Assembly: GCA_035530515.1 (NCBI GenBank) | Contig: DATKUO010000238.1 | Span: 23,989-87,988, forward strand | Length of the DNA stretch: 64,000 bases | DNA from: Bacteroidales bacterium | GTDB lineage: Bacteria > Bacteroidota > Bacteroidia > Bacteroidales > VadinHA17 | Direction: 5' to 3' | In this document: piece by piece, positions 42,347 to 63,955 of the stretch | How positions within the stretch are numbered: the stretch's first letter is position 1 | How the letters are laid out: each line of letters opens with the position of its first letter | Position numbers and translations under genes: made by a program | The notes under the pieces: generated by a model | The model's input: only the letters and a program-made list of their open reading frames with translations | What the model was told of the DNA's origin: nothing | Database searches by the model: none

Positions 42347-42410
42347 GAAGGTTCCTGTATATATATCTGATATACTAATTGTTATGTATTTAATCCACCT
42401 TTAGGGGGAA

Positions 42411-42425: not shown

Positions 42426-42431
42426 AGGGGG

Positions 42432-44404: not shown

Positions 44405-44405
44405 G

Positions 44406-46451: not shown

Positions 46452-46610
46452 ATCAAATAGTTTTATCGTTAAACATGAATAATCTGACCAACACTTTCAA
46501 AAGATGTGCCATTAACGTACTACTGACAAATAGTCATTTAATCTGATTCATTCTACGCCAATTTGCAGAATATAACTGCCACCGTGAAGGTCTGAAGAAA
46601 ATTTCTATTT

Positions 46611-47129
46611 TTAGAAATATTGTGGCAGCTTAAAATAAGCAATGAGTAATAACAGAGAAGAGAGTAGAAAAAAGGTCAGCAACACATATAAAGAGAAATT
46701 CCTTCTTTTTCTGAAGATCCGGATATTATGTTCACTAATCAGTTTTTTTACAATATTATGTATACGAAGAATAGCATTGGCATTTTTCGGTATATATGCA
46801 TCAATATTTAACCTTATAGCTTTCTTGATTTCTCCCATTTTCTCAGGCGGGCCAAGGAGAATAAGGCCCGTTAGCGTATCAATTCTTTTAATCTCAATTG
46901 TAATCTCATTAATCATTTCGTACTGCTCTTTTGTGCCATGAGCACCTAGAATTGCAATCTTACAGAAGGGATATTCTTTTTCCTCTTCAAGATGATTAAT
47001 AAACTCCTCTCGTGTAGGAAATGAAAAAACCTTATAACGTGCAGTATCAGTGAACCGCTTCCTAACCTCTTCAGTAAATCCTCTGTGGTCGTCGTAGCAG
47101 ATAAGATGAGTTTTAATAATCTTTGCCAT
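46611..47129 (-). CDS. receiver-like (possibly pseudo-receiver) domain protein with a C-terminal transmembrane anchor
   Basis: The alternating beta/alpha pattern is CheY-like (LICYDDH..., KIAILGAHG, ILLGPP). There is no obvious phospho-acceptor Asp at the end of beta3. The C-terminus LYVLLTFFLLSSLLLLIAYF is a TM helix. Confidence 0.4.
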   Translation of the reverse strand: MAKIIKTHLICYDDHRGFTEEVRKRFTDTARYKVFSFPTREEFINHLEEEKEYPFCKIAILGAHGTKEQYEMINEITIEIKRIDTLTGLILLGPPEKMGEIKKAIRLNIDAYIPKNANAILRIHNIVKKLISEHNIRIFRKRRNFSLYVLLTFFLLSSLLLLIAYFKLPQYF

Positions 47130-47155
47130 AGTACTTTTACAGGTAATAAAGATAC

Positions 47156-47983
47156 CTATTCTTTATTTCTTGCATCAACATTTATGGTCAATTTCCACAA
47201 ACCATTCTCAAAATAGTATGCATCATATGAATAATCAGGGCCATAGTATTGTCGGTCACCCTTCATAGCCGGAGTAAATGGAACCAGGTGGTCAAATACT
47301 ACTGATTTTTCCGAAGAGAATCTTAAAGACATCATTCCGTTAGAAGCATATTCAAAAACATCTCTGAATCTGATCTCATCATCAGCGACAAACCATTTAT
47401 TTCCAAATATTATTGAATCGCCGGGTGTGAAACTTAGAACATCTACTATCTTTCTGGATATAAATGTATTACCATAATCGATTCCTAATAAAACCCACCA
47501 TCTTTTATTATCGCTTATGACAGGCTTAAGGTCATAATACAATGCTCCATACCAGTTTTTTTCAGTATAGATAGTATCAGTTTTTACAGGCTCTTCTTTA
47601 TAATCAGTAGTCAACCTGTAAATTATATTTTTACTACCCTTTCCCGTTTTCCTGATGAAATAGCAAAAATAAAGGCTGGGGCTGTTTCTTAGGACTAAAT
47701 TCCATGTAATGATTTTCAAAAGTGAGTCGGGAGAAGTTATCTGACCCAGATATCGCAGGTTATTGAACCTATGGCTAAAGATTGTATCAGATAGGACATA
47801 ATTGTCAATAATTGATTTGATTGAATCATTGATCCGTATACGGTCATTATCATCGAATTTATTGATTAGCCGTCCGTAAAGTTTCTCAAGTACCTGTGGT
47901 GCATCATTTGTGGTAATCTGCCCAACGGTTGTCTCTGGTAAGAAAAAAATAAATACAATAGTGTATAATAAGATACTTCTCAT
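47156..47983 (-). CDS. hypothetical exported protein
   Basis: Signal peptide MRSILLYTIVFIFFLP. There is a 4-nt overlap with the upstream aminotransferase gene. Confidence 0.5.
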   Translation of the reverse strand: MRSILLYTIVFIFFLPETTVGQITTNDAPQVLEKLYGRLINKFDDNDRIRINDSIKSIIDNYVLSDTIFSHRFNNLRYLGQITSPDSLLKIITWNLVLRNSPSLYFCYFIRKTGKGSKNIIYRLTTDYKEEPVKTDTIYTEKNWYGALYYDLKPVISDNKRWWVLLGIDYGNTFISRKIVDVLSFTPGDSIIFGNKWFVADDEIRFRDVFEYASNGMMSLRFSSEKSVVFDHLVPFTPAMKGDRQYYGPDYSYDAYYFENGLWKLTINVDARNKE

Positions 47984-49185
47984 ATTTTCCCCCCATTATT
48001 CATTGCTTCATCAAGAAGCTTCTTCAGTTGCATGCATGCCTGTAAAATTTCATCTTCGCTGATTATCAATGGAGGAGCTATCCTGAAAGCATCATTACAG
48101 AAGAGAAAATAATCAAGAATCAGGCCATAATCAGGGGCTCTGGCAATAATAAATCTAATATATTCAGAGACAGTCAATTGCACTGCCAGCAAGAGTCCTT
48201 CTCCCCTCACTTCGCTAATAAGAGGATGGACGAGCTCCTTTTTAAACAGTTTAGATTTAGAGTTACATGATTCAACAAGATCCTCTTCTATAATTACATT
48301 AAGTGAGGCCAGGCCTGCTGCGCAACAGACCGGATGACCGCCGAATGTTGTTATATGTCCCAAAGGTGGGTTTGAGGATAATGATGACATGATTTCATTT
48401 GAAGAGATAAATGCACCTAATGGCATACCTCCGCCCAAAGCTTTTGCAAGAAGAAGAATATCGGGAACAATACTAAAACGGTCAATTGCGAACATCGAGC
48501 CTATACGGCCAAAACCAGTCTGGATCTCATCAAATATAAGCAAGGCTCCTGTTCTTTCACATCTTTCTTTTATCTTTCCCAGGAAACCATTTTCAGGATA
48601 GATTACCCCGGCCTCGCCCTGTACAGGTTCCACAATTACACATGCTGTTTTATTATCGATCGAATTGAGGGATTTCTCGTCGTTGAAATCAATCTGGAAA
48701 GTATCAGGTAATAAAGGTCTGAAAGCATTCCTGTATAGTTCACTTCCCTGTATACTTAATGCTCCGTGAGTACTACCATGATATGAGTTATTGAAAGAGA
48801 TTATCCGGCTTTTGCGAGTATATCTTTTCGCTAGTTTTAATGCGCCTTCAACTGCTTCGCTGCCGGAGTTAACAAAATAACAGGAATGCAACTGCGGAGG
48901 AAGAATTTGTAAGAGGCGTTCAGCATATTTCACCTGAGGACTCTGAATAATCTCCCCATATACCATAAGATGCATATACATATCAACCTGATTCTTAACT
49001 GCTTCTATCACTTTCGGATGACTGTGACCGGTGTTTGATACCGATACTCCTGAGATCAGATCGAGGTATTTTTCGCCATTCGGGCCATACATAAATACCC
49101 CATCAGCCCTTACAATTTCAACCATCATGGGCGCTACAGATGTTTGTCCAAGATGGAGGAGGAAAAGTTGACGGTTAGTAAGCAT
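47980..49185 (-). CDS. class-III (acetylornithine/GABA-type) PLP aminotransferase
   Basis: Motifs NSGSEAVEGALKLAK, DEIQTGFGRIG and LLAKALGGGMPLGA are present. Confidence 0.8.
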   Translation of the reverse strand: MLTNRQLFLLHLGQTSVAPMMVEIVRADGVFMYGPNGEKYLDLISGVSVSNTGHSHPKVIEAVKNQVDMYMHLMVYGEIIQSPQVKYAERLLQILPPQLHSCYFVNSGSEAVEGALKLAKRYTRKSRIISFNNSYHGSTHGALSIQGSELYRNAFRPLLPDTFQIDFNDEKSLNSIDNKTACVIVEPVQGEAGVIYPENGFLGKIKERCERTGALLIFDEIQTGFGRIGSMFAIDRFSIVPDILLLAKALGGGMPLGAFISSNEIMSSLSSNPPLGHITTFGGHPVCCAAGLASLNVIIEEDLVESCNSKSKLFKKELVHPLISEVRGEGLLLAVQLTVSEYIRFIIARAPDYGLILDYFLFCNDAFRIAPPLIISEDEILQACMQLKKLLDEAMNNGGKI

Positions 49186-49200
49186 GAGAAGATGTAGAAA

Positions 49201-49908
49201 TTATCTGGCCATAACGTTAATATCATTCAAAAGAGAATCCCTGAATGATTTACCAACAGGTATACTTTTCTGAGAACCTCCTACATTAAGATCAAGAGCG
49301 TTCTCTTTTATTGCTTGTATCATACTCTTGTTAATGATAAATGACCTGTGTACCCTGATGAAAATCCCGGAAGGTAATTGGCTTTCAATGGCTTTCATTG
49401 TAAAATGGATAGTAAATTTATCATCATTTGTATTCAGGGTAACATAATTTTCAAGAGCTTCGATATAGATAATATTACTAAGTCTTAGCTTCACCAGCGA
49501 TGATCCTTTTTTAATGAAAATTTCTTCATCTCCGGTACTATTTGGTTCTTTGCGTGCAAAGTACCTTACAGTCTTATCAATAGCCTTACAGAAGCGCCCA
49601 TAAGTAACGGGTTTGAGCAAATAATCAACCACATTAAAGTCGAAAGCTTTCAGTGCAAATTCTTCAGCTGATGATACAATAATAATATTTAGTGGAAAGT
49701 CGAGACTGCCTATAAAATCAAATCCATTCATTTCAGGCATCATGATATCAAGAATTATCAAGTCGATATCGTGGCGTTTGGTAAGAATATTCCTTGCTTC
49801 AATTGAGTCACTGAAACAACCTGCCAGATTAAGGGAGGAAGATTTATTGACAAATCCTTCCAGCAATTTGCAACTCAGTTTGTCATCATCAACTATTATA
49901 CAATTCAT
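49201..49908 (-). CDS. LytTR-family response regulator
   Basis: REC domain (MNCIIVDDD, DLIILDIMMP) plus LytTR domain (FIRVHRSFIINKS). Confidence 0.85.
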   Translation of the reverse strand: MNCIIVDDDKLSCKLLEGFVNKSSSLNLAGCFSDSIEARNILTKRHDIDLIILDIMMPEMNGFDFIGSLDFPLNIIIVSSAEEFALKAFDFNVVDYLLKPVTYGRFCKAIDKTVRYFARKEPNSTGDEEIFIKKGSSLVKLRLSNIIYIEALENYVTLNTNDDKFTIHFTMKAIESQLPSGIFIRVHRSFIINKSMIQAIKENALDLNVGGSQKSIPVGKSFRDSLLNDINVMAR

Positions 49909-50061
49909 ATAATACAGTCTAGGCAGGGAATTTCACAATCAAAAATAGTAAAAAACATTCACAGTTTTTTAACATTTTAAATAAAGTTGAATTTCTTTTC
50001 CAAATTTATATGATAATAGTAGAATTTATTTTAATAATCACTTATGCTCAGGGGATAATAA

Positions 50062-50092
50062 AATAAAAAAAAAGGGTGTTTTCACACCCCTT
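50062..50092 (-). terminator. rho-independent terminator of the HU gene
   Basis: On the minus strand, gggtgt-gaaa-acaccc is followed by a T9 run, 22 nt after the stop. Confidence 0.7.
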
Positions 50093-50113
50093 TGCAATCT
50101 CAATAAATTAAGA

Positions 50114-50383
50114 TTAAAGACCTTTGTTAAGTGCTGGAGCTGCTTTGAATTTAACAACTTTTTTAGCAGGAACGTTCAGTTTTTCACCCGTACGAGGATT
50201 CCGAACTACTCTTGCACTTCTTTGGTCAACTTTGAAAGTACCCATTCCAGGAAGTTGAATTCTGCTACCTTTTTTCATAGCTGAACCGAAAGCTCCAACA
50301 AAAGAGTTTAAAGCTTTACCTGCATCCTTAATTGAAAGACCTGCATCAGCAGCAATTGCGTTAACTAATTCTTTTTTTGTCAT
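50114..50383 (-). CDS. hup: HU-family DNA-binding protein
   Basis: From the ATG at 50383: MTKKELVNAIAADAGLSIKDAGKALNSF...RNPRTGEKLNVPAKKVVKFKA. The ORF-track start at 50455 adds 24 non-HU residues. Confidence 0.85.
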   Translation of the reverse strand: MTKKELVNAIAADAGLSIKDAGKALNSFVGAFGSAMKKGSRIQLPGMGTFKVDQRSARVVRNPRTGEKLNVPAKKVVKFKAAPALNKGL

Positions 50384-50425
50384 AATGAAAGATTTTAATG
50401 TTACACCAATCTTACTAATTGAATA

Positions 50426-50433
50426 CAAATATA
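50426..50433 (-). promoter_or_regulatory. Bacteroidota -7 promoter box TAnnTTTG (TATATTTG on the minus strand) upstream of HU
   Basis: The + strand reads caaatata. It lies 43-50 nt upstream of the ATG at 50383. Confidence 0.4.
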
Positions 50434-50684
50434 TTTTTTTTAAATTCATATGCAAATTTTTTTTACCTATTTTCCACAGATAGTGCCACTTTTAGGTTAA
50501 AACTGCCATATTTTTGGATTAATATCCGAATTTGATCATAATATCGCTATTGCTCACTACTCTTTAACTTCAGTGATTATTTCAATCAAATTTGTTCAAA
50601 TCCTGTTGATAAAAACTATATATTATTGAATATCTGATATTTAATCAATTTTGCAAAAATAATTCTCAAAAAACAAAAAAATAT

Positions 50685-50692
50685 TATCTTTG
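50685..50692 (+). promoter_or_regulatory. Bacteroidota -7 promoter box TAnnTTTG (tatctttg) for tRNA-Ser
   Basis: Exact consensus match ending 5 nt before the mature tRNA 5' end. Confidence 0.5.
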
Positions 50693-50696
50693 CGGC

Positions 50697-50786
50697 GGAG
50701 AAATGGCAGAGTGGTCGAATGCGGCGGTCTTGAAAACCGTTGTACGTTCACACGTACCGGGGGTTCGAATCCCTCTTTCTCCGCCA
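50697..50786 (+). tRNA. tRNA-Ser (anticodon UGA), CCA encoded
   Basis: Manually folded. Acceptor stem ggagaaa/tttctcc, anticodon stem gcggt/accgt with loop cuUGAaa. There is a long variable arm (tgtacgttcacacgtacc), T-arm ggggg-ttcgaat-ccctc, and discriminator g followed by cca. Confidence 0.9.
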
Positions 50787-50791
50787 AATGA

Positions 50792-50824
50792 AAAACTCCC
50801 CACGCAAGTGGGGAGTTTTGTTTT
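50792..50824 (+). terminator. rho-independent terminator after tRNA-Ser
   Basis: aaaactcccca-cgcaa-gtggggagtttt followed by gtttt. Confidence 0.65.
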
Positions 50825-50930
50825 CAGACAGCCAAGCCAGGCTTGCCTGAGCGAAGGATGGATGAAAACAAAAATCTGAATGAGCAAAGCGAATGCGAGT
50901 TTTTCATTTGAAGCACTCCCCTAAGCAGTA

Positions 50931-51137
50931 TTAAGCAAAAAAAGGCAATAAAAACCGGTTCCCAGGTGTATATAGATTTTTAAAATCAGAAAAATGATTA
51001 AAGAAATTAATAAATCCTTCTTTGTTAAATGCAATTGGAAGAGATCTAGTTTCAGATAAACAAATAACTATTGTTATCACAGAAAATAGTGAAAATATTA
51101 TTACAATTCCAGTCAATATATGTCGGACTATCTTCAT
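50931..51137 (-). CDS. possible small membrane protein (68 aa)
   Basis: One clear TM helix (ILTGIVIIFSLFSVITIVICL). There is no other support. Confidence 0.25.
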   Translation of the reverse strand: MKIVRHILTGIVIIFSLFSVITIVICLSETRSLPIAFNKEGFINFFNHFSDFKNLYTPGNRFLLPFFA

Positions 51138-51501
51138 AAAATGTTGTTTATTTAATTATATGGACATTAAAGGTAACAATAATTGACTTGCCATGGTGGA
51201 AAATCCGGTGACCTTGACCACCTTACTCCGGAAAACATTGACCACTGAAACCCGGAGATAAAACCTTGATATATAAATAAATATAATTAAGACAATCTTA
51301 CCGGCTGAATGTGGTCAATAGAACTGTCTTTTACACTAATTCCATTTCACAGGTCCCCGGTGAGGGGATTTGGATGAATGGGTTATTAATATTTAAGTTT
51401 GGAGAAATAGGGAGGAGAAAATTTACTAATTTTAAATAAAAAATTAAGTCCTGTCCTGACGAGTTTGTGCATTTTTATAAATTCCATAAAAACATATTAA
51501 A

Positions 51502-52605
51502 ATGAAAAACAAGATTCTCGGATCAATGGAAGGTTCGCCCCTGGTAAAAATCGCTGCATTAATAATCATTTTTGCAGGAGTGATTTATGCAAAAGCAATT
51601 GTCACTCCCTTTTTACTCGCACTTTTCATAAGTATCATTTGTGCGCAACCCATTACATGGCTTGAAAAAAAGAGAACCCCCAGATGGCTTGCACTTATCA
51701 TCGTAATATTTGGATTAATTGTACTTTTTTCAGGATTAACGTACCTTCTCGGAGGAACATTATCATCCTTTTCAGGGAATCTTTCACAATATGAAGCTAC
51801 CCTTACATCGATCAGCAGCTCATATATTCAGTTTTTAAATGAGAAAGGGTTAAATATCCCCAAAGATCAGTTTCTTACTCTTATCCAGCCGGCCAAGATC
51901 CTTGAATTTACTGCTAGCGCTTTGAATACAGTGTTTAATATGGTGGGGACTTCCTTCCTTATCTTCCTTATCATTTTATTTATTCTTCTGGAATTCGGAA
52001 GCTTTTCTGTTAAAGCTAAAGCAATTCAGATTGAATCGCATAAATCCATTTCTTATTATTCTACCATTCTACAGAATATCCGTCACTACCTTGGAATAAA
52101 AACCCTGTTATGTTTATCAGTAGGAATTCTTACCTATTTGGCATTATTGATCATTGGGGTCGATTATCCTCTCCTGTGGGCATTGATTGCAGCTCTGATG
52201 AATTATATGCCGAATATCGGATCCATCATCTCCACGATCCCGACAGTTCTCTTTGCCCTTATACAACTCGGATTAGGTGGTGCACTCTGGACCCTGGTAG
52301 CGACTATGGTTATCCACAATGTTTTTGGAAATTTAATTGAACCCAAGGTCATGGGTAAAGGTTTAGGCCTGTCAACCCTGGTTGTATTCCTGTCTCTTGT
52401 GTTCTGGGGATTTACACTGGGAATGGTGGGTATGTTCCTGTCAGCTCCCTTAACTATGACCATTAAGATCATCCTGGAACAGAAAGAGAAAACACGATGG
52501 CTGGCAATACTTTTGGGAACGCCTGCTGATGCTAAAATCTATCTTCGGCAAAAAAAATTGACTGAAAAACAGCAACATAAGGAATCGGAATCGAAGGATA
52601 AGTGA
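51502..52605 (+). CDS. AI-2E family transporter (PerM-like permease)
   Basis: Polytopic protein of about 8 TM helices, with motifs ...NYMPNIGSIISTIP... and ...EPKVMGKGLGLSTLVVFLSL.FWG...G.FLSAPLT. Confidence 0.8.
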   Translation: MKNKILGSMEGSPLVKIAALIIIFAGVIYAKAIVTPFLLALFISIICAQPITWLEKKRTPRWLALIIVIFGLIVLFSGLTYLLGGTLSSFSGNLSQYEATLTSISSSYIQFLNEKGLNIPKDQFLTLIQPAKILEFTASALNTVFNMVGTSFLIFLIILFILLEFGSFSVKAKAIQIESHKSISYYSTILQNIRHYLGIKTLLCLSVGILTYLALLIIGVDYPLLWALIAALMNYMPNIGSIISTIPTVLFALIQLGLGGALWTLVATMVIHNVFGNLIEPKVMGKGLGLSTLVVFLSLVFWGFTLGMVGMFLSAPLTMTIKIILEQKEKTRWLAILLGTPADAKIYLRQKKLTEKQQHKESESKDK

Positions 52606-53545
52606 AAATGTAAATAAGCTGTTCGGCTCGTCTATTTTTTGTATAATATAATCTGTACTCATGATAATCGAAATTTATGGATATTTATATATTACCACCA
52701 GCCACAAAATTAGTCTACACCCAGCAGTCACTCCAGGTTTTACTACCATAATCCTTTCCGCAACTATTTATAACCGTGCAAGTTTGGAATAGCTTATTTC
52801 ATTGATTTTCAATTAAAGAGCGAGTTCATTACCGTGCTAAAAGGTTGACTATTTATTAATATGTAGAAATCAATTGGACCATTCTGTTCACTTCAATTTT
52901 AGTCAGTTGTTCTCAAGTAAGAAGAGAAAAGGACAGAGGTAGCGACAACTTTCTTGCTTGGATTAAACACTTAGATTATTCACTTGTGATAGTTATAGAT
53001 AGGACACAATGGATTCAAAAAGACAGGCTTTAACAGGTGAAGAGACTTTTATGGTCCTCCACTCCTATTTTAGACTAAAATTAGCAATGCTTCTTTTCAT
53101 TGGATTCTTTCTGAAATGCACATTCCACAGTCGGATTTCTTCGAAATAATCCTTATATCTAAGTAGTTTTTGCTTTAAGGAGTATTTCAGTGATAATATA
53201 TAGATTGAAACATTGTTTTACGCTGTGAACAGAAATCTTATAGCCTATTTCACTATATTATATAAGACATAATATATAGGGATTTATGTACATAATTGAA
53301 GTGATAAGTATTTGAATACATAGTGATATTCATGAGTTTAATGGAGAGTGATATCACATTTGAATTTATGTTTAATTCTAAGATTCATGCTAGAGAAATA
53401 ATATTTAGCAATGGCTGGAATATTAAGATGGATAGAGGTTTAGATTATTTTCAATCCTTAGCAGGTAATTATTTCCAGATTGGAGTCGATGATCTTAAGT
53501 TGAGACCCTGTTTAGAAACTAATTTTGATTTTTATAAAAAATAGT

Positions 53546-56500
53546 CTAATGGTTTTTCTTTTCAAAAACAATATTATAGAGTATTCCTTCTCGTTGACTT
53601 GTATTGAACAATCTAAGATCTTCAGTAGAATCGACATCTTCCTGACTTATTATACCTTCGCTACTATCGAGCTTCCAACCATTCTTAATCCCTCCGTTCG
53701 GTCTGATAATAAGTTCAAAATTGTCCGACATTATTACTAATTCTCTCCAATGTGGAAGGAATCCTCCCTCATGAATAATAGGAACAGTACTTAAAATTGA
53801 TGTACTGGAGTCTTTTAAGAACAATTTACGTGAACCAGAGTCAATCCAATCCTTATCAATGTCATCAACATAAGCGTACCGATAGTTATTAAAGCTGGAC
53901 ATGTTGAAATTAAGTGTTTGAATATCCATATTGAGATTTTCAGAGATAGATTTTATCAGATTCAAGAGAATAAGGCAACCCAGAGCATCTTTAAGGTAAA
54001 TATCCTGGTATGTAATTTTTACTTTGCTGTTTTTAATCTTTGGAATTAATTTATCCCACATAGCTGAATCCGTTCTATAAAGAGTGTCCCAAAACTTAAC
54101 AAGTGTTGTATTCCTTTCTTTTATCTTGAATTCAAAAAGAATCTTATTCTTAGTCATTAAACTTCCCAGGTCAATATCCCAAGGTGTAAATTGCAATTGA
54201 GAAGAAAAGCGGCTTTTATAAATAGGGCTTCCACTTAAGCCCCAGTTTTCTGAGAATTCCGTGCATTCATTTTCTGAAAAATATAGAATCGATTCTTTAT
54301 TTGCATATTCTACAAGCATCAAAGAATTCAATCCCTTAGGAATAATAGAACTTATTATCTTAAACTGATATTGGCCTTTTGCCTCCATTGCTGATGCCAA
54401 TTCCCTTGCTGAAAGATCCGAGACGTCTGGTGAATTCATAGCAAAATTCACTTGTTTCCCCTGAAGTTTTAACCGATTTACAATTTCAGATAGTTTCCAG
54501 TTTTCCTGTTTCCACTCATTAATTTTATTTGAAATAAAAAAGGTTAATCTTTGTAATTCAGGATTTGCCACAACCTGAGTAATTTCGGTAAGCAGATTTG
54601 AAGTAACTCTATATGCACCGGGGAAGGATGAAGAGATTGACTCAGGCACTTCTACACGGCCTTCTTTTTCAAGTTGAAGCCACTCTATAGCTTTATTTCT
54701 ATCCAAATTATTTAAAAACCATTGTGAATCTCTGTCAATCAGGCATTTTGTACATGCTTTTTCACAAGTACAATCTAATGCTTGATATGATGAGTCTAAA
54801 ATTTCTGAAGCATAGTCAACAAAAAGGGATGAATACCCTGCACCACCTTTAGCTGTATCGTAAATAAAGACTGATGAATAGGTTGGATATTTCTTCACCC
54901 CAAAACCAATTTCCTGATTATTAATCCCAAGATACTCAGATAGCTTTCGAGATAAAATAACCCCTAAACTCCAAATGGTCTCAGGGTCGTTTATTAAATT
55001 ATTATTATTATTTCTGAACCTTAGTTCGATAAAATCAGTTTGCAACCTCCCTCCTAATAGTACATTTCTTTTAATGGCAACACCCAGGTTTTCATTGCCT
55101 GAACAAGTTCTGTTGCCTTCGCTTGCTCCTCCATTCAGTCTTTGATGGTTTTCAAGTGGATTGGGTGATCCTTCCGCACTTCCCCTTTCGAGTGAAGCTC
55201 TGCCACAATGTATACAAATTGCGTATCCAAATCCTTTTCCTTTATTATAATACAGAATTTCAGATTCATCACCACCATTACGAATCTCAATTATTGGATG
55301 CGTTCCTTCGGTATCTGAATCCCAAGGAAGCATATTTAATAAGATTGGCTCCACGAAACTTTGTGGGCCATTATTTGCTTTAATGTTTCTGGTAGGTTCA
55401 CTGAAATAGTCAACTGAAAACCCGGCGGGTTCAATCACTTCAGTAAAAGTATCACCAATAGATTGAATGCCATTCATTCCCTTATGATGACAATTAGGAC
55501 ATTCAGAATGAATACCAAAACCTAACCTAGTGAATCCACAATTTCTGCAGCTTTGTAAGATAGCCCTTCTAGAATCATTCCATTGAGATTTCATTACAAT
55601 GCCTGCGGAATCATAGCACTTTTCATTTAGTACCACCTGATTCCCAGGGGCGTATTCTGCTAATGCTCGTGTAATATTAAGTGAAGGGTTACTTTTATAT
55701 AAATTATTCTCATTCCCTTCATCAATATGATTATCAAAAACTTTAATATTAAAATCCACTATTCCGGTTGGGATTCCTGCACTTGGGATAAAGTCATTTT
55801 CTGCAAAAAAACCAAGAAGATTTTGTCCTAATAATTGTTTCCTCTGATACTTGATCGCTTTTATTTCAGGAGAGGTTTCAGAAAATCCATTCATCGCCAA
55901 TAGTCTTTCTTCAGACTCATCCAACATCATTTTCCTTGAGTTTAACCTGTTAAAAATATCCTCCAACGATGTAAGGCAAGATTTTATTGATTGCTCCAAA
56001 GTTGTCGATTCTTTAATAGTATTCTTTACAATTTTTTTATACCTATTTCGAATCTCGGAATTATCAACTGCCAAAAATTCCATCAGATATTGATGAAATA
56101 ATTCATATCTAAAAATGTTATTCTCATCCTGGTCGAAAAAGAAATTTTCAAGATTTGACTTGACATTTGCGCCCTCTATTACAGAAATATATGTTCCTAA
56201 TAAAAAAGAATTAATATGCCTTTGAATCAAAATACTACTTTCCAATTTTACAATTGGCATTGCAGTGACATGAGTCATCGCCCATTTTGGATCATTTATT
56301 ACATTAGTACCAATTGGATTTGGAGAACAAAATGTTACAGCCATTGCCTTAGATTCTGCACGCCTTCCAGCACGTCCAGCTCTTTGCAGGTAATTTGCAG
56401 GTTTAGGAGGAACATTATTCATTACTACTTCCGAAATACCTCCAATATCGACCCCCATTTCCATAGTAGTAGAGCATGATAAGATATTTATTTTGCCAAA

Positions 56501-59500
56501 ATTAAATTGCTCTTCAATTTCCTTCAAGCGACTCTTATTCTGCTGTGCGGAGTGCTCAGCGGCTAAGAAAATAGGATAGTTCAATAATATCCTTTCATTT
56601 AGGTTTGACCATAATCCAATTTCTTTTTGCCTAACTAGATTATCATCTTTCCATTTAAGGATTTCTTCATCTGAAGTGGGAATAAGATTCCTTTCCACAT
56701 CAAATTTTTGCTTATAAGCATAAGGGAAATACGGATAAGATATTTCCTCTTTAACTTTAAACCTTTCAAAATTATCTTTATTAATATTACCTTTCAAGGA
56801 CGGACTAAAACCTCTGAAGACAGTATCCATTGGGACATAAGTAACAGGGCATAGCCAGGCCTTTTCAAGCAGTTCTAGTTTCACTTTTCCGTTTTCGAAC
56901 AAGTTCAACTTATAACCTTTGTATTCTGCATTTTGATCGTTAGTTAAAGATAAAATATGAGAGGTTAAATATCTCCAGGCGCTATTTAGGATAGAATTTA
57001 TAATATCGACATTTGTATTATCAATCATTGAAATATCGGTAATATTCATTGCCGCGCAAAGAAGTAAAATTAATCGGCTTTGTCTTTCTTCTTGGACATT
57101 AAATGAAGGCCAATGCTTTACCCTATTGCCAGATCTTTCATTCGTTAAATAGCAATCTGATGCATATACATGACTGGAAAAATAGTCCTGAGTAATAAAT
57201 GGTCTAAGTTCGCTTTGGATTATGATGTGTGTATTTTCCCGCACGAAGAAATCAAGACAAATTTTTAGAAAGTCTCTCCAATCGTTAGAGCTCCATCCTA
57301 ATTTTTCAAATGACGAAGGTCTTTCACATTTTTGTAATTCCGGATAGACTATTTTAATGAATCCCATTGTTTCTGGTGAATTACCTTTTCGAGGTCTCCT
57401 CCCAAATTGATCAACAAGAAGTGCTTTTAAATAATTTTGTTTTCCTAAACCATGACTGGAAATATGGCGATATAAACTAGACAAATTCGCATTGTTATCA
57501 AGGTATTCACATAATTCACTGAGACTTATGTTTGGATTAAGGATAATTTGAGTACCAGATTTTATATTTTCAAGTTCATGCAAGCGCTTTAAGATCACTT
57601 CTATCCCGCTACTCCTTAATGGTAAAAGCTGATCATACTCTTGTTGTTCCAAAGTATCTAATTCGCGATGAAGAGTAGCTCCCTCCCTTTTTTTCCCTGC
57701 CAGGTAATGAAAGACAGCGGTTCTCATCCAATTGCGCTCAACTTCAGTATTTTGGGCCAAAGCAGATTTTGCTGTTCCTTGCCTATTATCAGTGAAGGTT
57801 ATATATTTTCTTCCATCCCATAAACTTCCTGTATTTTTGTCTGGCATAGAATCTGCCTGCTCAAGCAAAGTAGATGATAATACACGACTTAAAAACACAG
57901 TGCTGGTTCGCAAATACTTTATTTTATCAGTTCGGTTGCCACAGTGCGGGCATAAAATATTCCCACTTGTTGAATGCTGACATTCTGTAAATTCTCCATC
58001 GTGGATTATTGTTACATCATCTATATTTATACCACAAGATATAAGATTAGCTGAGTTTGAAGGAGCTGATGTTACACCTTTCGCAAGTATAATTTTAGAC
58101 CAGCTCAGGTTTTCCGTCTCATTTTGTTCTTCATTTTCTAAATCATCCTCTATAGCCAAATCAAAAAGATCTTCTTCGGTTTTTGATGGAAGTCTAAACC
58201 TTGCAGGATAAATTTCTTGCTCTCTCTCAGCAACCAATAAATGATTCCCACATAAATTACAGGATGTTAATTCTAATAGAGGGGCACCGCATTCACACAC
58301 GGTTTTCATATACGTTGTCATTGATCCAATCGCCGGGCGGTCTTCAATATGCCGTTCACAAAGAGGATTTGTACAAACGAATATTCCACCTATACTACGA
58401 ATAAAAAAATGGGCTCTAGTTGGTAATAATGCATCACTTTTGCCAGAATTTATTAAATCAGTAATTTTAATTCCTAATGAATCAATTATTTCAAGACTTT
58501 CTTCAATTGTAGCGTCAGGCTTATATCTTCTGCCAATTTCTCTGGCTGATAAAGCTGAACCCTGATTCATATCGAGTCGTAGTTTGTCAGTAATAGGGTT
58601 CGTTCTCGAAGTGTCCTTAATTTTTGGAAGCACTTGTTTTCCATTAATTACCGCAATTTCATCTAATGATTTGCCCGTAAGTTGAGCAATAAACTTTTTC
58701 AACTGGCTCTCATTATCCGAACCAATAGTGGCTGAAGTTGATGCAAATCGAACTTGGTTAACTGTCACACCGAACGCATCAAGAATCCTTCGAATCTGCA
58801 TAGAAAGTTCAGCAGCTGCAGATCCTGAGTAGGTATGTGTTTCATCCAATAATATCCAACGTAATTTACCCTGAGATTGCTTCAAAATTTCCTGATCCTT
58901 TTTTCTTACCAACATATACTCTAACATAGTTGGATTTGTAAAAAGTATTTGAGGTGTGGTTTCTCTAATAGCCTTTCTTGTAATTAATTCGGGATACGCT
59001 TCTTTTTGTTTTTGCTTTGCAATATTTTCTTCTTCAGTATTTCCATTATAAATAGCAAATGTAACTTGAGGGGATACAGCCTCACACCATGCTTTCATTC
59101 TTTTCTGCTGGCTGTTCATTAATGCATTAAGTGGGTATAGAAATATCGCTTGTACACCAGTAGTATGTCCTTCAATCTTTTGTCTAAGTAAATCTTGAAT
59201 TACAGGTATCATGAAACACTCTGTTTTTCCTGAGCCTGTGCCACTGGTAACAGCAATTGATTTTTTATTTATTAGTAATTCTTTCCAACTTTCAACTTGA
59301 TGCAGATAGGGAGCTCTCTCCTTTGGAAAGCGAAAGTCTGGATCCTTTATCTTATCTAATGACTTTATAAAATTCTCATCAAAAATATCACTAAGCTGCT
59401 CAAAAGACTTTGAAGATGCCATCCAAGGAAATGTAGCCTGAAAAACCGGTTCCGCTAATAATGGTTCCTCTTCAAGTAATTTTCTAAAATATTTCTGGTT

Positions 59501-59584
59501 GCTTTCCTGGCCCGAAGCCCACATTGAAAGAAGCGTTTCGGATAGTCGTCGCTGCGAATTTTTATAAAATTCCAAGTAATTCAT
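53546..59584 (-). CDS. giant SF2 DExH helicase with internal Zn-ribbons and a DUF1998-type (MrfA-like) Cys cluster; DruE-like candidate defence helicase
   Basis: 2012 aa. Motif I SGTGSGKT is at aa114-121 (nt 59222-59245) and motif II DETH at aa247-250 (nt 58835-58846). Motif III SAT is at aa284-286 and a motif-IV-like YITFTDNRQGTA at aa594-605. Motif V TTMEMGVDIGG is at aa1039-1049 and motif VI QRAGRAGRR at aa1067-1075 (nt 56360-56386). Cys pairs CTNPLC/CEC/CNLC/CPHC lie at aa404-548 and CRNC...CPNC at aa1346-1365. CIHC is at aa1457-1460, and the DUF1998-type cluster CTCEKACTKC at aa1605-1614 (nt 54743-54772). The C-terminal ~370 aa carry no recognisable motif. Confidence 0.75.
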   Translation of the reverse strand: MNYLEFYKNSQRRLSETLLSMWASGQESNQKYFRKLLEEEPLLAEPVFQATFPWMASSKSFEQLSDIFDENFIKSLDKIKDPDFRFPKERAPYLHQVESWKELLINKKSIAVTSGTGSGKTECFMIPVIQDLLRQKIEGHTTGVQAIFLYPLNALMNSQQKRMKAWCEAVSPQVTFAIYNGNTEEENIAKQKQKEAYPELITRKAIRETTPQILFTNPTMLEYMLVRKKDQEILKQSQGKLRWILLDETHTYSGSAAAELSMQIRRILDAFGVTVNQVRFASTSATIGSDNESQLKKFIAQLTGKSLDEIAVINGKQVLPKIKDTSRTNPITDKLRLDMNQGSALSAREIGRRYKPDATIEESLEIIDSLGIKITDLINSGKSDALLPTRAHFFIRSIGGIFVCTNPLCERHIEDRPAIGSMTTYMKTVCECGAPLLELTSCNLCGNHLLVAEREQEIYPARFRLPSKTEEDLFDLAIEDDLENEEQNETENLSWSKIILAKGVTSAPSNSANLISCGINIDDVTIIHDGEFTECQHSTSGNILCPHCGNRTDKIKYLRTSTVFLSRVLSSTLLEQADSMPDKNTGSLWDGRKYITFTDNRQGTAKSALAQNTEVERNWMRTAVFHYLAGKKREGATLHRELDTLEQQEYDQLLPLRSSGIEVILKRLHELENIKSGTQIILNPNISLSELCEYLDNNANLSSLYRHISSHGLGKQNYLKALLVDQFGRRPRKGNSPETMGFIKIVYPELQKCERPSSFEKLGWSSNDWRDFLKICLDFFVRENTHIIIQSELRPFITQDYFSSHVYASDCYLTNERSGNRVKHWPSFNVQEERQSRLILLLCAAMNITDISMIDNTNVDIINSILNSAWRYLTSHILSLTNDQNAEYKGYKLNLFENGKVKLELLEKAWLCPVTYVPMDTVFRGFSPSLKGNINKDNFERFKVKEEISYPYFPYAYKQKFDVERNLIPTSDEEILKWKDDNLVRQKEIGLWSNLNERILLNYPIFLAAEHSAQQNKSRLKEIEEQFNFGKINILSCSTTMEMGVDIGGISEVVMNNVPPKPANYLQRAGRAGRRAESKAMAVTFCSPNPIGTNVINDPKWAMTHVTAMPIVKLESSILIQRHINSFLLGTYISVIEGANVKSNLENFFFDQDENNIFRYELFHQYLMEFLAVDNSEIRNRYKKIVKNTIKESTTLEQSIKSCLTSLEDIFNRLNSRKMMLDESEERLLAMNGFSETSPEIKAIKYQRKQLLGQNLLGFFAENDFIPSAGIPTGIVDFNIKVFDNHIDEGNENNLYKSNPSLNITRALAEYAPGNQVVLNEKCYDSAGIVMKSQWNDSRRAILQSCRNCGFTRLGFGIHSECPNCHHKGMNGIQSIGDTFTEVIEPAGFSVDYFSEPTRNIKANNGPQSFVEPILLNMLPWDSDTEGTHPIIEIRNGGDESEILYYNKGKGFGYAICIHCGRASLERGSAEGSPNPLENHQRLNGGASEGNRTCSGNENLGVAIKRNVLLGGRLQTDFIELRFRNNNNNLINDPETIWSLGVILSRKLSEYLGINNQEIGFGVKKYPTYSSVFIYDTAKGGAGYSSLFVDYASEILDSSYQALDCTCEKACTKCLIDRDSQWFLNNLDRNKAIEWLQLEKEGRVEVPESISSSFPGAYRVTSNLLTEITQVVANPELQRLTFFISNKINEWKQENWKLSEIVNRLKLQGKQVNFAMNSPDVSDLSARELASAMEAKGQYQFKIISSIIPKGLNSLMLVEYANKESILYFSENECTEFSENWGLSGSPIYKSRFSSQLQFTPWDIDLGSLMTKNKILFEFKIKERNTTLVKFWDTLYRTDSAMWDKLIPKIKNSKVKITYQDIYLKDALGCLILLNLIKSISENLNMDIQTLNFNMSSFNNYRYAYVDDIDKDWIDSGSRKLFLKDSSTSILSTVPIIHEGGFLPHWRELVIMSDNFELIIRPNGGIKNGWKLDSSEGIISQEDVDSTEDLRLFNTSQREGILYNIVFEKKNH

Positions 59585-59605
59585 AAGTGGTGTTTATTAT
59601 AATAG

Positions 59606-62600
59606 TTATTTCTGAAGAATTCTTTTAACCATGCATAATAGTATTTCAGCATATTCTGAAGGCAAGAATTGCCGGTAGAAATTTATGGTGCGGCGCATTT
59701 TCACATTTTCATCATTCCAAATTGTATCGTCTTTCCCTGTCATGGCTAAAGCTGATTTTACTGGAGAGATCAGTAATCCCCTCACATAAACTGGTAATTC
59801 AGCATTCATTGCTTGGGGGAATAAATCTTTCCATTCATTGGGAATAAAAACTAAATATTCTGGTAAATTACTATTCCCACCCAGTTTCTCTCTTATATTT
59901 TGAATCTTTATCTGAGATGGAGCAGGTACAATTTGATTAATAAGGACTTCATTATTTTCCAATAAGTTCAGTAATTCACCTGTCTCTGCATTAAGCGTAT
60001 AATTCATAAATGCTTTTTTCCATTCAAAGCTGCTAATTAGAAATCCATTTTTCATTGAATCTGGCATTCTTTCTAACAACCAATCTATTGCCTCAATCCA
60101 ATCTCCTTCCTTTATCCAGTGCCATGCAACTGCAAGTTCATTTTCGAACCTGGTTATGCCTTGCAATAAATTATCCTTATTGACATTTTGGCTTTGCCAT
60201 AAAAGATATGTCATTTTCACCATTAGTATAGGAGATAAAGAAATTGCGCGAAAGCAATTCAATGTTTTAAAAGGAAGTGAATAATTGATAACAATATTAT
60301 AATACTCAATTACTTTTCTCCATTCTTCCGAAATCTGGAAATTGTCTTCAAATGCAGGACTTTTTTCCAATGACTCATTAATTTCAATAATATTCTTTTC
60401 TTGTGGACTCAAACCACTATTATCATAAAATTCAATGTCAATTTTTTCAGATGAAAAATCAAAATAACGAGGCACCACTTGTTCATCTGCAGTTTTATCA
60501 GAGAATATAATAAACTTCTTTAAAGAAGTTCCTTCTTTTAAATTATAACTTTCACCGGAGTTTTTTCCCATCTCCTCTACAATTATTTCATCGCTTGAGC
60601 ATCCAACTGCAATTCCATATAATTTCTCTTTGTAATCTATAATATTATTGTCTTCATAATTATCGACAATAAAAATTGAATTCTTTTCATCATCTTTTTT
60701 CGTAAACAAATTGAATTCTTTAATGAAAACTACTTTATTGCCAATTTTAACCATTACTTGAGATTCTTTGTCAAATGGATCAGAATCATAAAGTAGAAAC
60801 ATTTCACGAATGTTATCTTCAAATCGACTTAACGAATGTATTCCTTGTACAAGCTGCCCCGAAATTCTTACCTTAAGGTTCTTGTAGTGTGAGACTCTCG
60901 TATCTGCATTTTGCCCCATCACAACAAATCTATAACCATACAGTGAAGATCTGCAAAGGACATGATTATTTTCGATTTCAATTCCCTGAGAATTCAAAAG
61001 AACAATTCCGCTAAAAGGTGATGCAACTGTAATTTCTAAAAATGGAGTATTTGCCTGGTTTAATTTAGGAAAAAGTCGAAATTTTGTAATCTCCGGATAT
61101 TGTATTAGATCACTCTTGCGAGATACTCTCCAAATATTCTTATCAAGACTTTCAATTACTAATCCTTGTTGATCTGAAACAGGAAAAATATCACCGCCTG
61201 ACCATTCCCACTTTATAACTCCAGATTTTTGTGTCAGATTTTGGAAATTGCAATCTAAATCTCCCGTGTAATAAAATTTTTCTTTGAAGAATTTTTTATC
61301 TGGAAACTCTATCTTGAATTCCAGCAAACCAATTGGAAGGTTTTTACCATCATATTTTTTCCATTCGCGATCTCTAAATTCCCGGAAATGAACATTACTC
61401 GCTGGTACTCTTATATGCGATTCATTGTACAAACGAATATCCGGTTTGGAAATAAGAATTTTAAAATTTGCATTTTGAACCCAATCTATTGACCAACCTG
61501 CAAACTCACATGTGTAGGAAGTTAAAGTATCATCAAATATAATTTCCTCCTCAGTTAGAGTATTTGTGAGCGTGATTGAGTCACAAAATGCAATCCAGTT
61601 AAGTGTTATTTCTGAAAGATAAACTTCTGAAGTTGATCCCACTGTACTCCAATCAAGAGGAAGAATTACCGCATTATTATTTGAATTAGAAGTTCCTGAT
61701 TTAAAAAACCAAAAGCCTTCGTTTTCGACTAATAATTGTGGGGTTTCAAAGTCAGGAACAAAACTATTAGGAGCAGTTATATCAACGATTTGGTTATTAT
61801 CTTTTTTTAATTGAAGGGAAATTACTGGTTCTCCCTTCCATTTAAAATTCATAAATTTTGATTCTCTCAAAATAAAATCACCATTAATAGATCGGATATA
61901 AGTTGCGACATATTGATTTTGTACATATAATGAAAATGAGTTGCAATCTTCTAATTGATGTTCTTCCTTATAGGAATAAGGAATTTTTTTAGCAAGCTCA
62001 ATATTATATGACAATTGCAGATTTTCTTCTAATTTGAAAATTTTCCACCTCACAGTAAAAGGTGCAGAGTGTGAAATTTCTGAGTTAGAACTTTCTTTCA
62101 GATCTTTTGTTAATTCTTTCCATTTACCTTCTTGGGCATCATATGGTAGTAAATCATCATTTTTCTCATAGATAGCTCGTGCGATTAGTAAACTTAGCTC
62201 ATATATACCTTCATTTTTAAAAGATAAAGGCAAATAATTTGTACAAGGTAAATTCTCAATGAAACTACTATCATTCCAATTAATATTTACATTTTCTGTA
62301 TGCTGAATAAGGCCTTTAAGGAATGTTTTATATACGATTATATTCTCACTATTACCCTGAATATGATTCATAGGCAAGCCACCTTGTATTAATAGGGATC
62401 GAAACCATAATCGGTTTCGACGGACAATTACAGGTATTCTTAACCGTCTACCTCCTATTTTTGCTAATTGATATAATTCCTCTGCATAATAATTACTCAA
62501 ACCTAACGATGATGAAATTGCTTCCTTACTGGTTCTTCCCCCATTATATTCTCTTCTCCACCACTCAGAGTAATACAAGGCAGCTTCATTAGCAAGTTTT

Positions 62601-62719
62601 TGATTATTTGGATAATTTATAGAAATAAATGCATCATGCAATTCCTTTTTTAATACATCATATTGTTCTTGAGTAATTTTCATTTTCCACAAAGGGATTT
62701 GCCATACTATATTTTCCAT
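59606..62719 (-). CDS. large (1037 aa) protein of unknown function, translationally linked partner of the helicase; DruH-like by position and size only
   Basis: Uninterrupted ORF ending 21 nt before the helicase ATG on the same strand. No P-loop, nuclease, methylase or Zn motif was recognised by eye. The Trp-rich N- and C-terminal regions look alpha-helical and the middle looks beta-rich. Confidence 0.6.
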   Translation of the reverse strand: MENIVWQIPLWKMKITQEQYDVLKKELHDAFISINYPNNQKLANEAALYYSEWWRREYNGGRTSKEAISSSLGLSNYYAEELYQLAKIGGRRLRIPVIVRRNRLWFRSLLIQGGLPMNHIQGNSENIIVYKTFLKGLIQHTENVNINWNDSSFIENLPCTNYLPLSFKNEGIYELSLLIARAIYEKNDDLLPYDAQEGKWKELTKDLKESSNSEISHSAPFTVRWKIFKLEENLQLSYNIELAKKIPYSYKEEHQLEDCNSFSLYVQNQYVATYIRSINGDFILRESKFMNFKWKGEPVISLQLKKDNNQIVDITAPNSFVPDFETPQLLVENEGFWFFKSGTSNSNNNAVILPLDWSTVGSTSEVYLSEITLNWIAFCDSITLTNTLTEEEIIFDDTLTSYTCEFAGWSIDWVQNANFKILISKPDIRLYNESHIRVPASNVHFREFRDREWKKYDGKNLPIGLLEFKIEFPDKKFFKEKFYYTGDLDCNFQNLTQKSGVIKWEWSGGDIFPVSDQQGLVIESLDKNIWRVSRKSDLIQYPEITKFRLFPKLNQANTPFLEITVASPFSGIVLLNSQGIEIENNHVLCRSSLYGYRFVVMGQNADTRVSHYKNLKVRISGQLVQGIHSLSRFEDNIREMFLLYDSDPFDKESQVMVKIGNKVVFIKEFNLFTKKDDEKNSIFIVDNYEDNNIIDYKEKLYGIAVGCSSDEIIVEEMGKNSGESYNLKEGTSLKKFIIFSDKTADEQVVPRYFDFSSEKIDIEFYDNSGLSPQEKNIIEINESLEKSPAFEDNFQISEEWRKVIEYYNIVINYSLPFKTLNCFRAISLSPILMVKMTYLLWQSQNVNKDNLLQGITRFENELAVAWHWIKEGDWIEAIDWLLERMPDSMKNGFLISSFEWKKAFMNYTLNAETGELLNLLENNEVLINQIVPAPSQIKIQNIREKLGGNSNLPEYLVFIPNEWKDLFPQAMNAELPVYVRGLLISPVKSALAMTGKDDTIWNDENVKMRRTINFYRQFLPSEYAEILLCMVKRILQK

Positions 62720-62902: not shown

Positions 62903-63955
62903 TCAATCGGATTTCATATAATACAATTCAATATACCATTTTATCCAGTTATTGAGCATTTTATCACCTGATCTACCTGCAGAATTTATTATATCAGATG
63001 ATTTAAATGATGAGAATTTTGGATTATTATCAATCAGATCCTTATATCTACTTATTGAACCTTCTAAAGCATCATTACCTGGATGATGAACCACAGAGAA
63101 ACTAACATTTTTATATAACCCTTCATTTTCAAGTGCAAAACCCAACAATTGATTACGCCATAACTGATTCATCCCTCCTTGAAACGGGCATGGTCCCTCT
63201 TTTTTATAATTTACATAAAAAGATTTATTAGCCTCAGTGATTTCCCAATAATTGAATTTTCTAACATCATGATAATAACATAGTTTTTTGTCCATCAGAA
63301 TATCAGAAAATGATTTCTCGCAAAGATGTATTTTATCATCTCGATTGTCACTCTTATATCCACCACATTGTGTAAATTCTTTTTCAGTGAGTTTATGTTC
63401 TATCAACCACAAGCAAAGCTCATTATCATTGTTATAATATGCTATTGCAATGTCTGAATCGGTACCCGACCTTGCTGAGTGGTCGCCTAACAATCCTTTT
63501 TCATAGGAGGAATTACCATCCCAAAACTCTATTCGGAATCCTTTGTAAAATTGATCTGTAGCCAGACTTTGAAAATCAGATTTAAGTTCACGAATAATTT
63601 CATTGACTTTAGGATTTAACAGGATCGGTAAAAACAGGTTTACATTAGCTGCCTGGGAGCTAACCATATGATTGAAATGCTGATGAAGTTTGAAAGGAAA
63701 TTTTTCTTTATGCGATAATAAGTCTGATAAAATGGGAGGATAGATCAATGGGTACTTTGTGTGAACTGACTCAGGCAAAATTGCATCATATTTATATTCT
63801 CGAGTAATGCCTTTTACTTTCTCTGTATAAATACCCTCCTCCCTTGTAATATTCTTCCATTTCCAGTTAATCAAATGCACATACAATTTTTTCTGAAACT
63901 CGCTGAGCGATTCAGGTAGTTTATATTTAATCCCATCTAGTATCTCTTCTTTCAT
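62903..63955 (-). CDS. PD-(D/E)xK restriction-endonuclease-like protein
   Basis: 350 aa. The candidate catalytic core is ...GTDSDIAIAYY(x13)LWLIEHKL... (D166/D168 ... E186-x-K188; nt 63392-63460), preceded by RIEFWD (E143). The HFNHMVSSQAANVNLFLPIL block is typical of restriction-enzyme-like families. It sits 183 nt upstream of the 1037-aa gene on the same strand. Confidence 0.55.
   Translation of the reverse strand: MKEEILDGIKYKLPESLSEFQKKLYVHLINWKWKNITREEGIYTEKVKGITREYKYDAILPESVHTKYPLIYPPILSDLLSHKEKFPFKLHQHFNHMVSSQAANVNLFLPILLNPKVNEIIRELKSDFQSLATDQFYKGFRIEFWDGNSSYEKGLLGDHSARSGTDSDIAIAYYNNDNELCLWLIEHKLTEKEFTQCGGYKSDNRDDKIHLCEKSFSDILMDKKLCYYHDVRKFNYWEITEANKSFYVNYKKEGPCPFQGGMNQLWRNQLLGFALENEGLYKNVSFSVVHHPGNDALEGSISRYKDLIDNNPKFSSFKSSDIINSAGRSGDKMLNNWIKWYIELYYMKSD

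Follow-up and report, generated by a model that had tools for sequence, protein, structure and literature searches.

Druantia type III and its closest described relatives

The closest described systems to the locus studied here are the Druantia type III-A systems of Escherichia coli (YjiT/YjiV; PDB 9tu7-9tud) and Pseudomonas aeruginosa, in which a druH gene abuts a druE gene coding for a large helicase. We find the same gene order in a 64,000-nucleotide stretch of DNA from an uncultured Bacteroidales bacterium (GTDB lineage VadinHA17; assembly GCA_035530515.1, contig DATKUO010000238.1, positions 23,989 to 87,988), hereafter the window. Here, druE (53546..59584, minus strand) codes for a 2012-aa YprA/MrfA-like superfamily 2 (SF2) helicase and druH (59606..62719, minus strand) for its 1037-aa partner.

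An initial annotation of the window described the mechanism of Druantia as essentially unknown, a statement made outdated by several structural and biochemical studies of 2025-26. Loeff, Chanez and Jinek reported that DruH of P. aeruginosa (PaDruH) is a 3′-5′ exonuclease of single-stranded DNA (ssDNA) that trims the 3′ ends of forks, that PaDruE is an autoinhibited dimeric helicase-nuclease, and that the two form a 1:1 complex on forked DNA by way of DruH's C-terminal domain and the stalk of DruE (10.64898/2026.05.13.724313). In the same study, defence needed the phospholipase D (PLD)-like pocket of PaDruE (D1740, H1830, D1917, R1918, Y1919, R1951, H1999, R2001 and S2022), with R1918A abolishing it, as well as the PaDruH residues R22, K28 and E64 and, in part, E220, with R22A again abolishing it (10.64898/2026.05.13.724313). 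A further study likewise describes DruE as a helicase-nuclease, whose targets are replication intermediates that contain ssDNA (PMC13192584). Hu et al. and Himpich et al. described a direct, non-abortive defence with a dimeric 3′-to-5′ helicase that is set off by exposed ssDNA or 3′ overhangs; they found no nuclease activity and the PLD domains of the E. coli protein (EcDruE) to be dispensable, and proposed a nuclease-independent model for E. coli (10.64898/2026.05.12.722862; 10.64898/2026.05.13.724758). DruH was presented by Hu et al. as an ssDNA binder that is competitively inhibited by ATP (10.64898/2026.05.12.722862); the ssDNA/ATP pocket of EcDruH comprises Y670, N672, Y733, R1031, H1062, R1064 and K1067. 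The Mycobacterium smegmatis system blocks the circularisation and replication of phage DNA (PMC13316683), and DruH and DruE suffice for defence in both E. coli and P. aeruginosa (for the latter, 10.64898/2026.05.13.724313).

Beyond the III-A systems, the III-B and M. smegmatis DruH-DruE systems likewise comprise two genes built on a YprA-like helicase; the III-B DruE, however, is a more compact protein from which the PLD-like domains are usually missing (10.64898/2026.05.13.724758), while the DruE of the window has both. More distantly, the MrfA/YprA-MrfB, DISARM DrmA/DrmB, ARMADA and Dpd DpdJ systems have the YprA-family SF2 core, the OB domain and the MZB (DUF1998) domain in common with it, but feature other partners, insertions and C-terminal nuclease types, and only their core motifs match.

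Assignment of the pair to Druantia type III

We put a probability of about 0.92 on the reading that the window carries an intact Druantia type III system of III-A architecture as cargo of a strain-variable defence hotspot in an uncultured Bacteroidales. This reading is carried by end-to-end matches to the PADLOC profiles of both components: the 2012-aa protein scores 2178.6 bits against DruE3 (PDLC00036; aa 1-2009 on profile positions 3-2022 of 2023) and the 1037-aa protein 424.5 bits against DruH3 (PDLC00045; aa 4-1037 on positions 25-1065 of 1065). These matches bear out the two-gene DruH-DruE system proposed in the initial annotation, which had also envisaged extra modules, a distinct subtype or a new helicase system; the latter ideas are unsupported, since no part of either protein lies outside the two profiles. 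The PADLOC profiles of the other Druantia types cover only the C-terminal half of DruE (aa ~1017-1660; DruE1 540, DruE2 280 and DruE4 253 bits), while those for DrmA, DpdJ, BrxH and Cas3 give motif-level scores only (YprA-type 43-95 bits). DISARM, considered as a candidate, was rejected: it has the helicase and DUF1998 on separate proteins together with DrmC and a methylase, whereas the two are fused here and the DrmA profiles score only 37-43 bits. The genes next to the pair encode a REase-ARP nuclease, a brxL relic and an AI-2E transporter, none of which is a DruA-D or DruM/F/G component. The druHE pair is an already described system and no new class of defence system.

The solved structures agree with this assignment. 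With DruE as the query, phmmer recovers the E. coli protein 9tu7_Y (2108 aa; entries 9tu7-9tuc) at E=2.5e-216 in three collinear stretches spanning aa 29-1806. A profile of 21 DruH homologues (A1) reaches the solved DruH 9tud_A at E=5e-13, with N-terminal, middle and C-terminal stretches collinear and the alignment to 9tud stopping short of the last ~150 residues. An Enterobacter DruH taken as a stand-in for EcDruH departs from the residue numbering of its ssDNA/ATP pocket. The local Pfam release recognizes DEAD, Helicase_C and MZB in DruE and no domain in DruH; precomputed assignments from a newer release label the two proteins YjiV_N and YjiT_N, respectively, in keeping with what the Druantia III genes are called in E. 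coli K-12.

The two minus-strand open reading frames (ORFs) of the initial annotation were located exactly as described. Only 21 nt (59585..59605, minus strand) separate the stop of druH from the start of druE, a spacing that implies co-transcription; the corresponding gap ranges from -58 to +28 nt in related loci. Both frames are uninterrupted across 9.2 kb. The SF2 DExH motif set and the CxCxxxCxxC cluster of DUF1998 type, noted earlier from the letters alone, were also recovered. Walker A (GTGSGKT, 59222..59242, minus strand, aa 115-121, with K120) is invariant in the DruE alignment A3, as are D247, E248 and H250 of the Walker B/motif II DETH (58835..58846, minus strand, aa 247-250). The C-x-C-x3-C-x2-C cluster (C1605/C1607/C1611/C1614) lies within the MZB/DUF1998 zinc-binding domain (54740..54955, minus strand, aa 1544-1615; Pfam PF09369, E=1.8e-11), and conservation of its cysteines reaches 96-97% across 186 DruE sequences. 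Five Cys clusters of DruE are conserved in all, and the protein also displays large RecA2 insertions and zinc clusters.

The AlphaFold2 (AF2) model of DruH (mean predicted local distance difference test score, pLDDT, 84; predicted TM-score, pTM, 0.69) has a helical/beta/helical layout, consisting of an N-terminal helical domain (62087-62719, minus strand, aa 1-211), a beta-rich Ig-like region (60455-62059, minus strand, aa 221-755) and a C-terminal helical domain (59609-60406, minus strand, aa 772-1037). A helical/Ig-like/helical layout has been reported for both PaDruH (10.64898/2026.05.13.724313) and EcDruH (10.64898/2026.05.12.722862). Foldseek matches of the model are generic Ig-like multidomain proteins with low TM-scores, as likewise reported for PaDruH (10.64898/2026.05.13.724313), and no DruH structure was returned from a structure library reaching to April 2026.

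Set against the III-A systems of E. coli and P. aeruginosa, DruE of the window displays the same series of an N-terminal region, RecA1, RecA2 with zinc, duplex-binding and dimerisation inserts, OB/zinc, MZB and two PLD-like domains, and DruH, compared at the helical/beta/helical level, the same N-helical, Ig-like and C-helical parts. Common motifs include Walker A and B, the Cys clusters, the DruH E-W-W-R-R motif that holds PaDruH E64, and D-x-Y and H-x-R in the second PLD-like domain (PLD2). Among the differences, DruE is ~30% identical to Proteobacterial DruE and ~100 aa shorter (2012 versus 2108), and the pair stands outside any Zorya II-Druantia III-ARMADA II array of the kind typical of E. 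coli. With respect to the Bacteroidota DruE3/DruH3 that are represented in PADLOC-DB v2 (PDLC00036 / PDLC00045) there is no architectural difference, and the copy in the window is a new sequence.

DruE belongs to a large family, with 4618 homologues at E<1e-30 and YjiV_N in 120 of the 120 matches listed. Many come from Bacteroides, Segatella and Prevotella (and also Paludibacter), in clusters of thousands with 40-82% identity; the nearest is 82% identical, and the nearest among GTDB species representatives 44%. When each GTDB species, represented by one genome, was scanned with the DruE alignment, 80 DruE loci were recovered from Bacteroidota, Pseudomonadota, Myxococcota and further phyla. Among the 70 of these with at least 3.3 kb of sequence upstream of druE, 64 have an ORF that abuts druE on the same strand and is at least 700 aa long (median 1115 aa), and 44 of these partners match a Bacteroidota-derived DruH profile; the remaining cases of the 70-locus survey are mostly fragmented genes. 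The druH-druE pair is thus co-conserved across phyla, which answers the question of partner conservation raised in the initial annotation and agrees with the strict pairing of DruH with DruE reported earlier (10.64898/2026.05.12.722862). In a neighbour-joining tree of the helicase-to-MZB region, built from type III-like sequences only (that is, without III-B, ARMADA, type I or type II references), DruE of the window groups with Bacteroidales sequences, and nearly all tree relatives have 355-400 residues after the MZB domain. As a separate observation, the DruH family includes proteins of 1560-1776 aa (P0011, P0014-P0016; L055:4660-9990), which exceed the usual length by 500-700 residues; one such cluster has 670 member sequences.

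The PLD-like domains of DruE and divergent residues of the pair

The last 373 residues of DruE gave no match by phmmer against PDB or with Pfam at E<0.5. A 13-sequence profile of this region (A2), however, aligns to EcDruE 9tu7 residues 1734-2048, and the AF2 model of aa 1640-2012 (pLDDT 87.5) retrieves top Foldseek matches that are all two-lobed enzymes or nucleases of the PLD superfamily, namely PLD3, phospholipase D, Tdp1, Pss (phosphatidylserine synthase), SauUSI (7clg), NucT and Zucchini; SauUSI 7clg was also the top fold match of Hu et al. (10.64898/2026.05.12.722862). We therefore recognize two C-terminal PLD-like domains (53549..54667, minus strand, aa 1640-2012), the presence of which indicates the architecture of subtype III-A and not that of the compact III-B. 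Across the 186 DruE sequences, the signature of PLD2 reads Y-x-D-(R)-Y ... H-x-R ... R-P-D-G-G ... W. In the window, its pocket comprises D1861-I1862-Y1863 (53996-54004), H1945-W-R1947 (53744-53752) and N1963 (53696-53698), all on the minus strand; Y1859, D1861, Y1863, H1945, R1947, G1965 and W1970 are kept. Of the PaDruE pocket residues, five could be placed in the window protein: D1917, Y1919, H1999 and R2001 correspond to D1861, Y1863, H1945 and R1947, and R1918 to Ile1862, whereas D1740, H1830, R1951 and S2022 had no mapped counterpart.

Several observations weigh against this assignment or against transferring the published mechanism to it. The NCBIfam YjiT_fam model (STY4851/ECs_5259) gives DruH only 115 bits, under its 150-bit cut-off, which makes DruH a divergent member of the family, and a direct phmmer search of DruH against PDB found no match. 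The functional residues of PaDruH were mapped onto DruH in 69 sequences via a Stutzerimonas DruH that has R22, K28, E64 and E220 in register. By this route E64 corresponds to E52 (Glu in 59 of the 69), the first residue of the conserved motif EWWRREY (62546-62566, minus strand, aa 52-58), and K28 to K14, both kept; R22, for its part, corresponds to Ile8, a position with Arg in only 27 of the 69. About 20 N-terminal residues are missing relative to Proteobacterial DruH, including an Arg conserved in 44/69, and the loop that holds PaDruH E220 is deleted, as it is in 31-32 of the sequences. In the PLD2 pocket of DruE, Ile1862 occupies the position of PaDruE R1918 in the D-R-Y motif, where 131 of the 186 sequences have Arg, and Asn1963 replaces the Asp of R-P-D-G-G found in 174 (94%). 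Finally, the published mechanisms conflict on the nuclease activity of DruH and on the need for the PLD domains, and the mode of action at this locus, most likely direct clearance by a helicase acting with DruH on phage ssDNA, is drawn from homologous systems.

Apart from these changes at the PLD2 pocket and at the N-terminus of DruH, the locus shows nothing unusual. The R-to-I and D-to-N/H changes of the pocket are common to the DruE of the window and its nine closest relatives (P0027-P0035), and the deviating residues of PLD2 and DruH are subclade traits of intact, conserved genes; the locus stays in the family. They bear on the reading of the locus as a Druantia III variant whose DruE has no nuclease, the PLD2 pocket having degenerated in the subclade, so that defence would consist only of unwinding by the helicase with ssDNA binding or processing by DruH. 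Both pocket positions are widely conserved elsewhere and the substitution R1918A at the first of them kills defence in P. aeruginosa; two groups found the PLD domains of EcDruE dispensable and inactive. DruE homologues that end 7-32 residues past the MZB domain and have no PLD at all (L058, L064, L061, L070 and L082) are scattered in the tree and form no single clade, a distribution that points to repeated loss of the PLD-like domains. On the other side, D1861, Y1863, H1945 and R1947, which are the most conserved residues of the pocket (92-99% in the 186 sequences), are retained, the PLD-like region is of full length with a confidently modelled fold, Asn can often replace Asp structurally, and two other groups report a nuclease activity and a requirement for it. 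Weighing these, we regard a nuclease-free variant as possible but doubtful. The substitutions might mean that the proposed nuclease sites are unused in this lineage, and whether PLD2 of DruE cuts DNA is itself disputed among the published studies. That the subclade (DruE at least 52% identical, P0027-P0035), with two otherwise conserved residues gone from its PLD2 pocket and a DruH short of the N-terminal helix, the R22 counterpart and the E220 loop assigned to the putative exonuclease site, is a functionally distinct Druantia III variant appears to us improbable.

The subclade substitutions offer a useful comparison for the dispute of 2026 over whether DruE PLD2 is a nuclease and DruH an exonuclease: if both proposed nuclease sites were naturally disabled and defence kept, the clade would be a natural experiment on cutting versus unwinding or sequestering. 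The locus is chiefly of value to annotation: it adds a Druantia III that can be typed with confidence and that belongs to an uncultured lineage of Bacteroidales.

Proposed mode of action

By analogy with the systems of E. coli, P. aeruginosa and M. smegmatis, we predict that DruE of the window is a dimeric, ATP-driven 3′-to-5′ DNA helicase, which, where phage DNA is being replicated or recombined, would load on its exposed ssDNA or duplex-ssDNA junctions and unwind it. DruH would be a monomer, built of an N-helical, six Ig-like and a C-helical domain, that binds or trims the ssDNA. Two versions of its role can be envisaged from the published work: it might be a 3′-5′ exonuclease that licenses DruE at forks or, alternatively, an ssDNA binder that is held off by cellular ATP. 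In either version DruH probably docks on the stalk of DruE via its own C-terminal domain, and the two proteins together would clear the phage DNA without killing the host.

The strain-variable hotspot and its neighbouring genes

A metagenome contig of the same species (L086, from JGI) is 99.3% identical to the window over 39201-53332 (14.2 kb) and unrelated beyond, and the divergence between the two places the left boundary of the strain-variable segment at 53332/53333. An uncultured Bacteroidales metagenome-assembled genome (MAG) has a PpdK 100% identical to the one in the window, while the HU-like gene gave no exact match. At the same site, in place of druHE, L086:1-6527 carries a type I HsdR (989 aa; PADLOC REase_I, 443 bits), three small genes including an HTH gene, and a 297-aa endonuclease of SRA_ScoMcrA-HNH type; its sequence stops within the island. 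As a contig of the same species has other restriction cargo past 53332, we identify druHE as cargo of a strain-variable defence hotspot, at which Druantia III, a type I and SRA-HNH restriction set and a BREX relic are now documented to alternate between strains.

The pair has 34.1% GC (druH 31.8%, druE 35.3%) and the upstream REase gene 32.9%, against 41.4% in ppdK and 38.4 ± 2.4% in 29 further genes of the window. By z-score, druH (-2.7) and the REase gene (-2.3) stand out from these, and druE (-1.25) does not. The GC dip at druHE is thus real yet mild. The AT-richer block of the initial annotation holds in direction but was overstated in size, as its range of 25-30% GC compares with a mere 31% of 60-nt lines at or below 30%. 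The break in synteny and composition it had asked for is found as a sharp junction in the former and a slight shift in the latter.

Upstream of druH, at a distance of 183 nt and in the same orientation, lies a PD-(D/E)xK nuclease gene (62903..63955, minus strand, 350 aa; Pfam REase-ARP E=2.4e-16, PDDEXK_13 E=6e-12), which confirms the nuclease-like neighbour noticed earlier and has no match among PADLOC and NCBIfam profiles. Its position, orientation and low GC, and its presence in every contig that carries this element (L001-L003), are what would be expected of a three-gene variant with this nuclease, possibly together with a 128-aa gene past the end of the window, as an added effector. No REase-ARP homologue, however, was found in the 80 other DruE loci, and the closest relatives (76%, 57% and 50% DruH identity) have none next to the pair; their upstream genes are an unrelated one (BLASTP E=0.91), an AbiEii gene or one for an HD protein, in wider neighbourhoods with restriction-modification, AbiE and AAA_15/WYL genes. 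Together with the sufficiency of DruH and DruE in E. coli and P. aeruginosa, this makes a three-gene system very unlikely, and the REase-ARP gene is best read as separate island cargo and not as a conserved Druantia component. The 128-aa protein (L001:8366-8752), which precedes the REase-ARP gene and has no family match, is like it of low GC and without PADLOC or NCBIfam matches; the two could form a small defence module of their own.

On its other side, druE faces a 73-aa ORF (53323..53544, plus strand) that is tail-to-tail with it, ends 1 nt before its stop codon and starts where the island junction lies. The ORF matches the C-terminal half of the PLD-like domain MIT_C (Pfam E=5.5e-21, profile positions 75-141/142 only) and the end of PADLOC BrxL (positions 623-695/698 only, E=2.9e-15); its tblastn matches lie at the 3′ termini of genes annotated as brxL, and upstream of it all frames contain stops. 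It is the relic of a truncated gene for the BREX Lon-like protease, outside the Druantia system, and a sign of gene turnover that marks the edge of the island. An intact BREX system was rejected on the same grounds, only the BrxL tail being present. Such decay of a defence gene at the site, along with the pocket residues that are off consensus, could suggest that druHE is itself a decaying, non-functional remnant. Yet both ORFs are open over their full length, the helicase, zinc and MZB motifs are invariant, the two proteins recur identically in several independent assemblies, and the same deviations recur throughout a subclade of relatives that are full-length and 52-82% identical, an indication of purifying selection; we consider decay extremely unlikely.

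The idea that DruE is a housekeeping repair helicase of the MrfA/YprA or Lhr type beside an unrelated large neighbour can be dismissed: the core and MZB are common to MrfA/YprA (B. subtilis, 6znp, E=3e-17) and Lhr, but the match is confined to core motifs, the NCBIfam housekeeping models give only 34-119 bits (TIGR03817 119, cut-off 874; ligase-associated DEXH TIGR04121 89, cut-off 850; Lhr NF007284 34, cut-off 1496) beside 2178 bits for DruE3, which settles the family check proposed in the initial annotation, the partner is DruH and no MrfB-type exonuclease, and the absence of druHE from the same-species contig L086 shows it to be non-core.

The conserved side of the junction carries an AI-2E transporter gene and a single tRNA-Ser(TGA) (50697-50786). 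The tRNA-Ser locus of the initial annotation is therefore there, but its proposed link to the island does not hold, since 2.5 kb separate it from the junction, on the side that is conserved, and the island is not inserted at the tRNA. A search for att-like direct repeats around 50-64 kb returned chance-level matches only, and no integrase was seen. The AI-2E transporter gene (window ~51270-52660) stands alone on 1.4-kb contigs in three metagenome assemblies (L084, L085), and druHE contigs in metagenome assemblies end within ~250 nt of the brxL relic (~53300); these assembly breaks on both sides of the junction suggest strain heterogeneity or a repeat.

Further observations concern the flanks of related elements. 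In a Desulfobacterium MAG, a gene just upstream of druH (L026:4401-6467) codes for a 688-aa protein that shares an MIT_C-like region with the relic (phmmer E=8e-07) and may represent a BrxL-like gene beside Druantia III in another phylum. Past the end of the window, L001:1134-8351 (~window 64369-71586) encodes an AddB-like PD-(D/E)xK protein (902 aa) and an AddA-like UvrD/PD-(D/E)xK helicase-nuclease (1089 aa). This AddAB-like pair, which may be either the housekeeping AddAB or more island cargo, was not confirmed as a conserved flank, the UvrD-like proteins of L001 and of the closest druHE relative (L090) being only ~20% identical; it is preceded by an HTH_17 (excisionase-like) gene.

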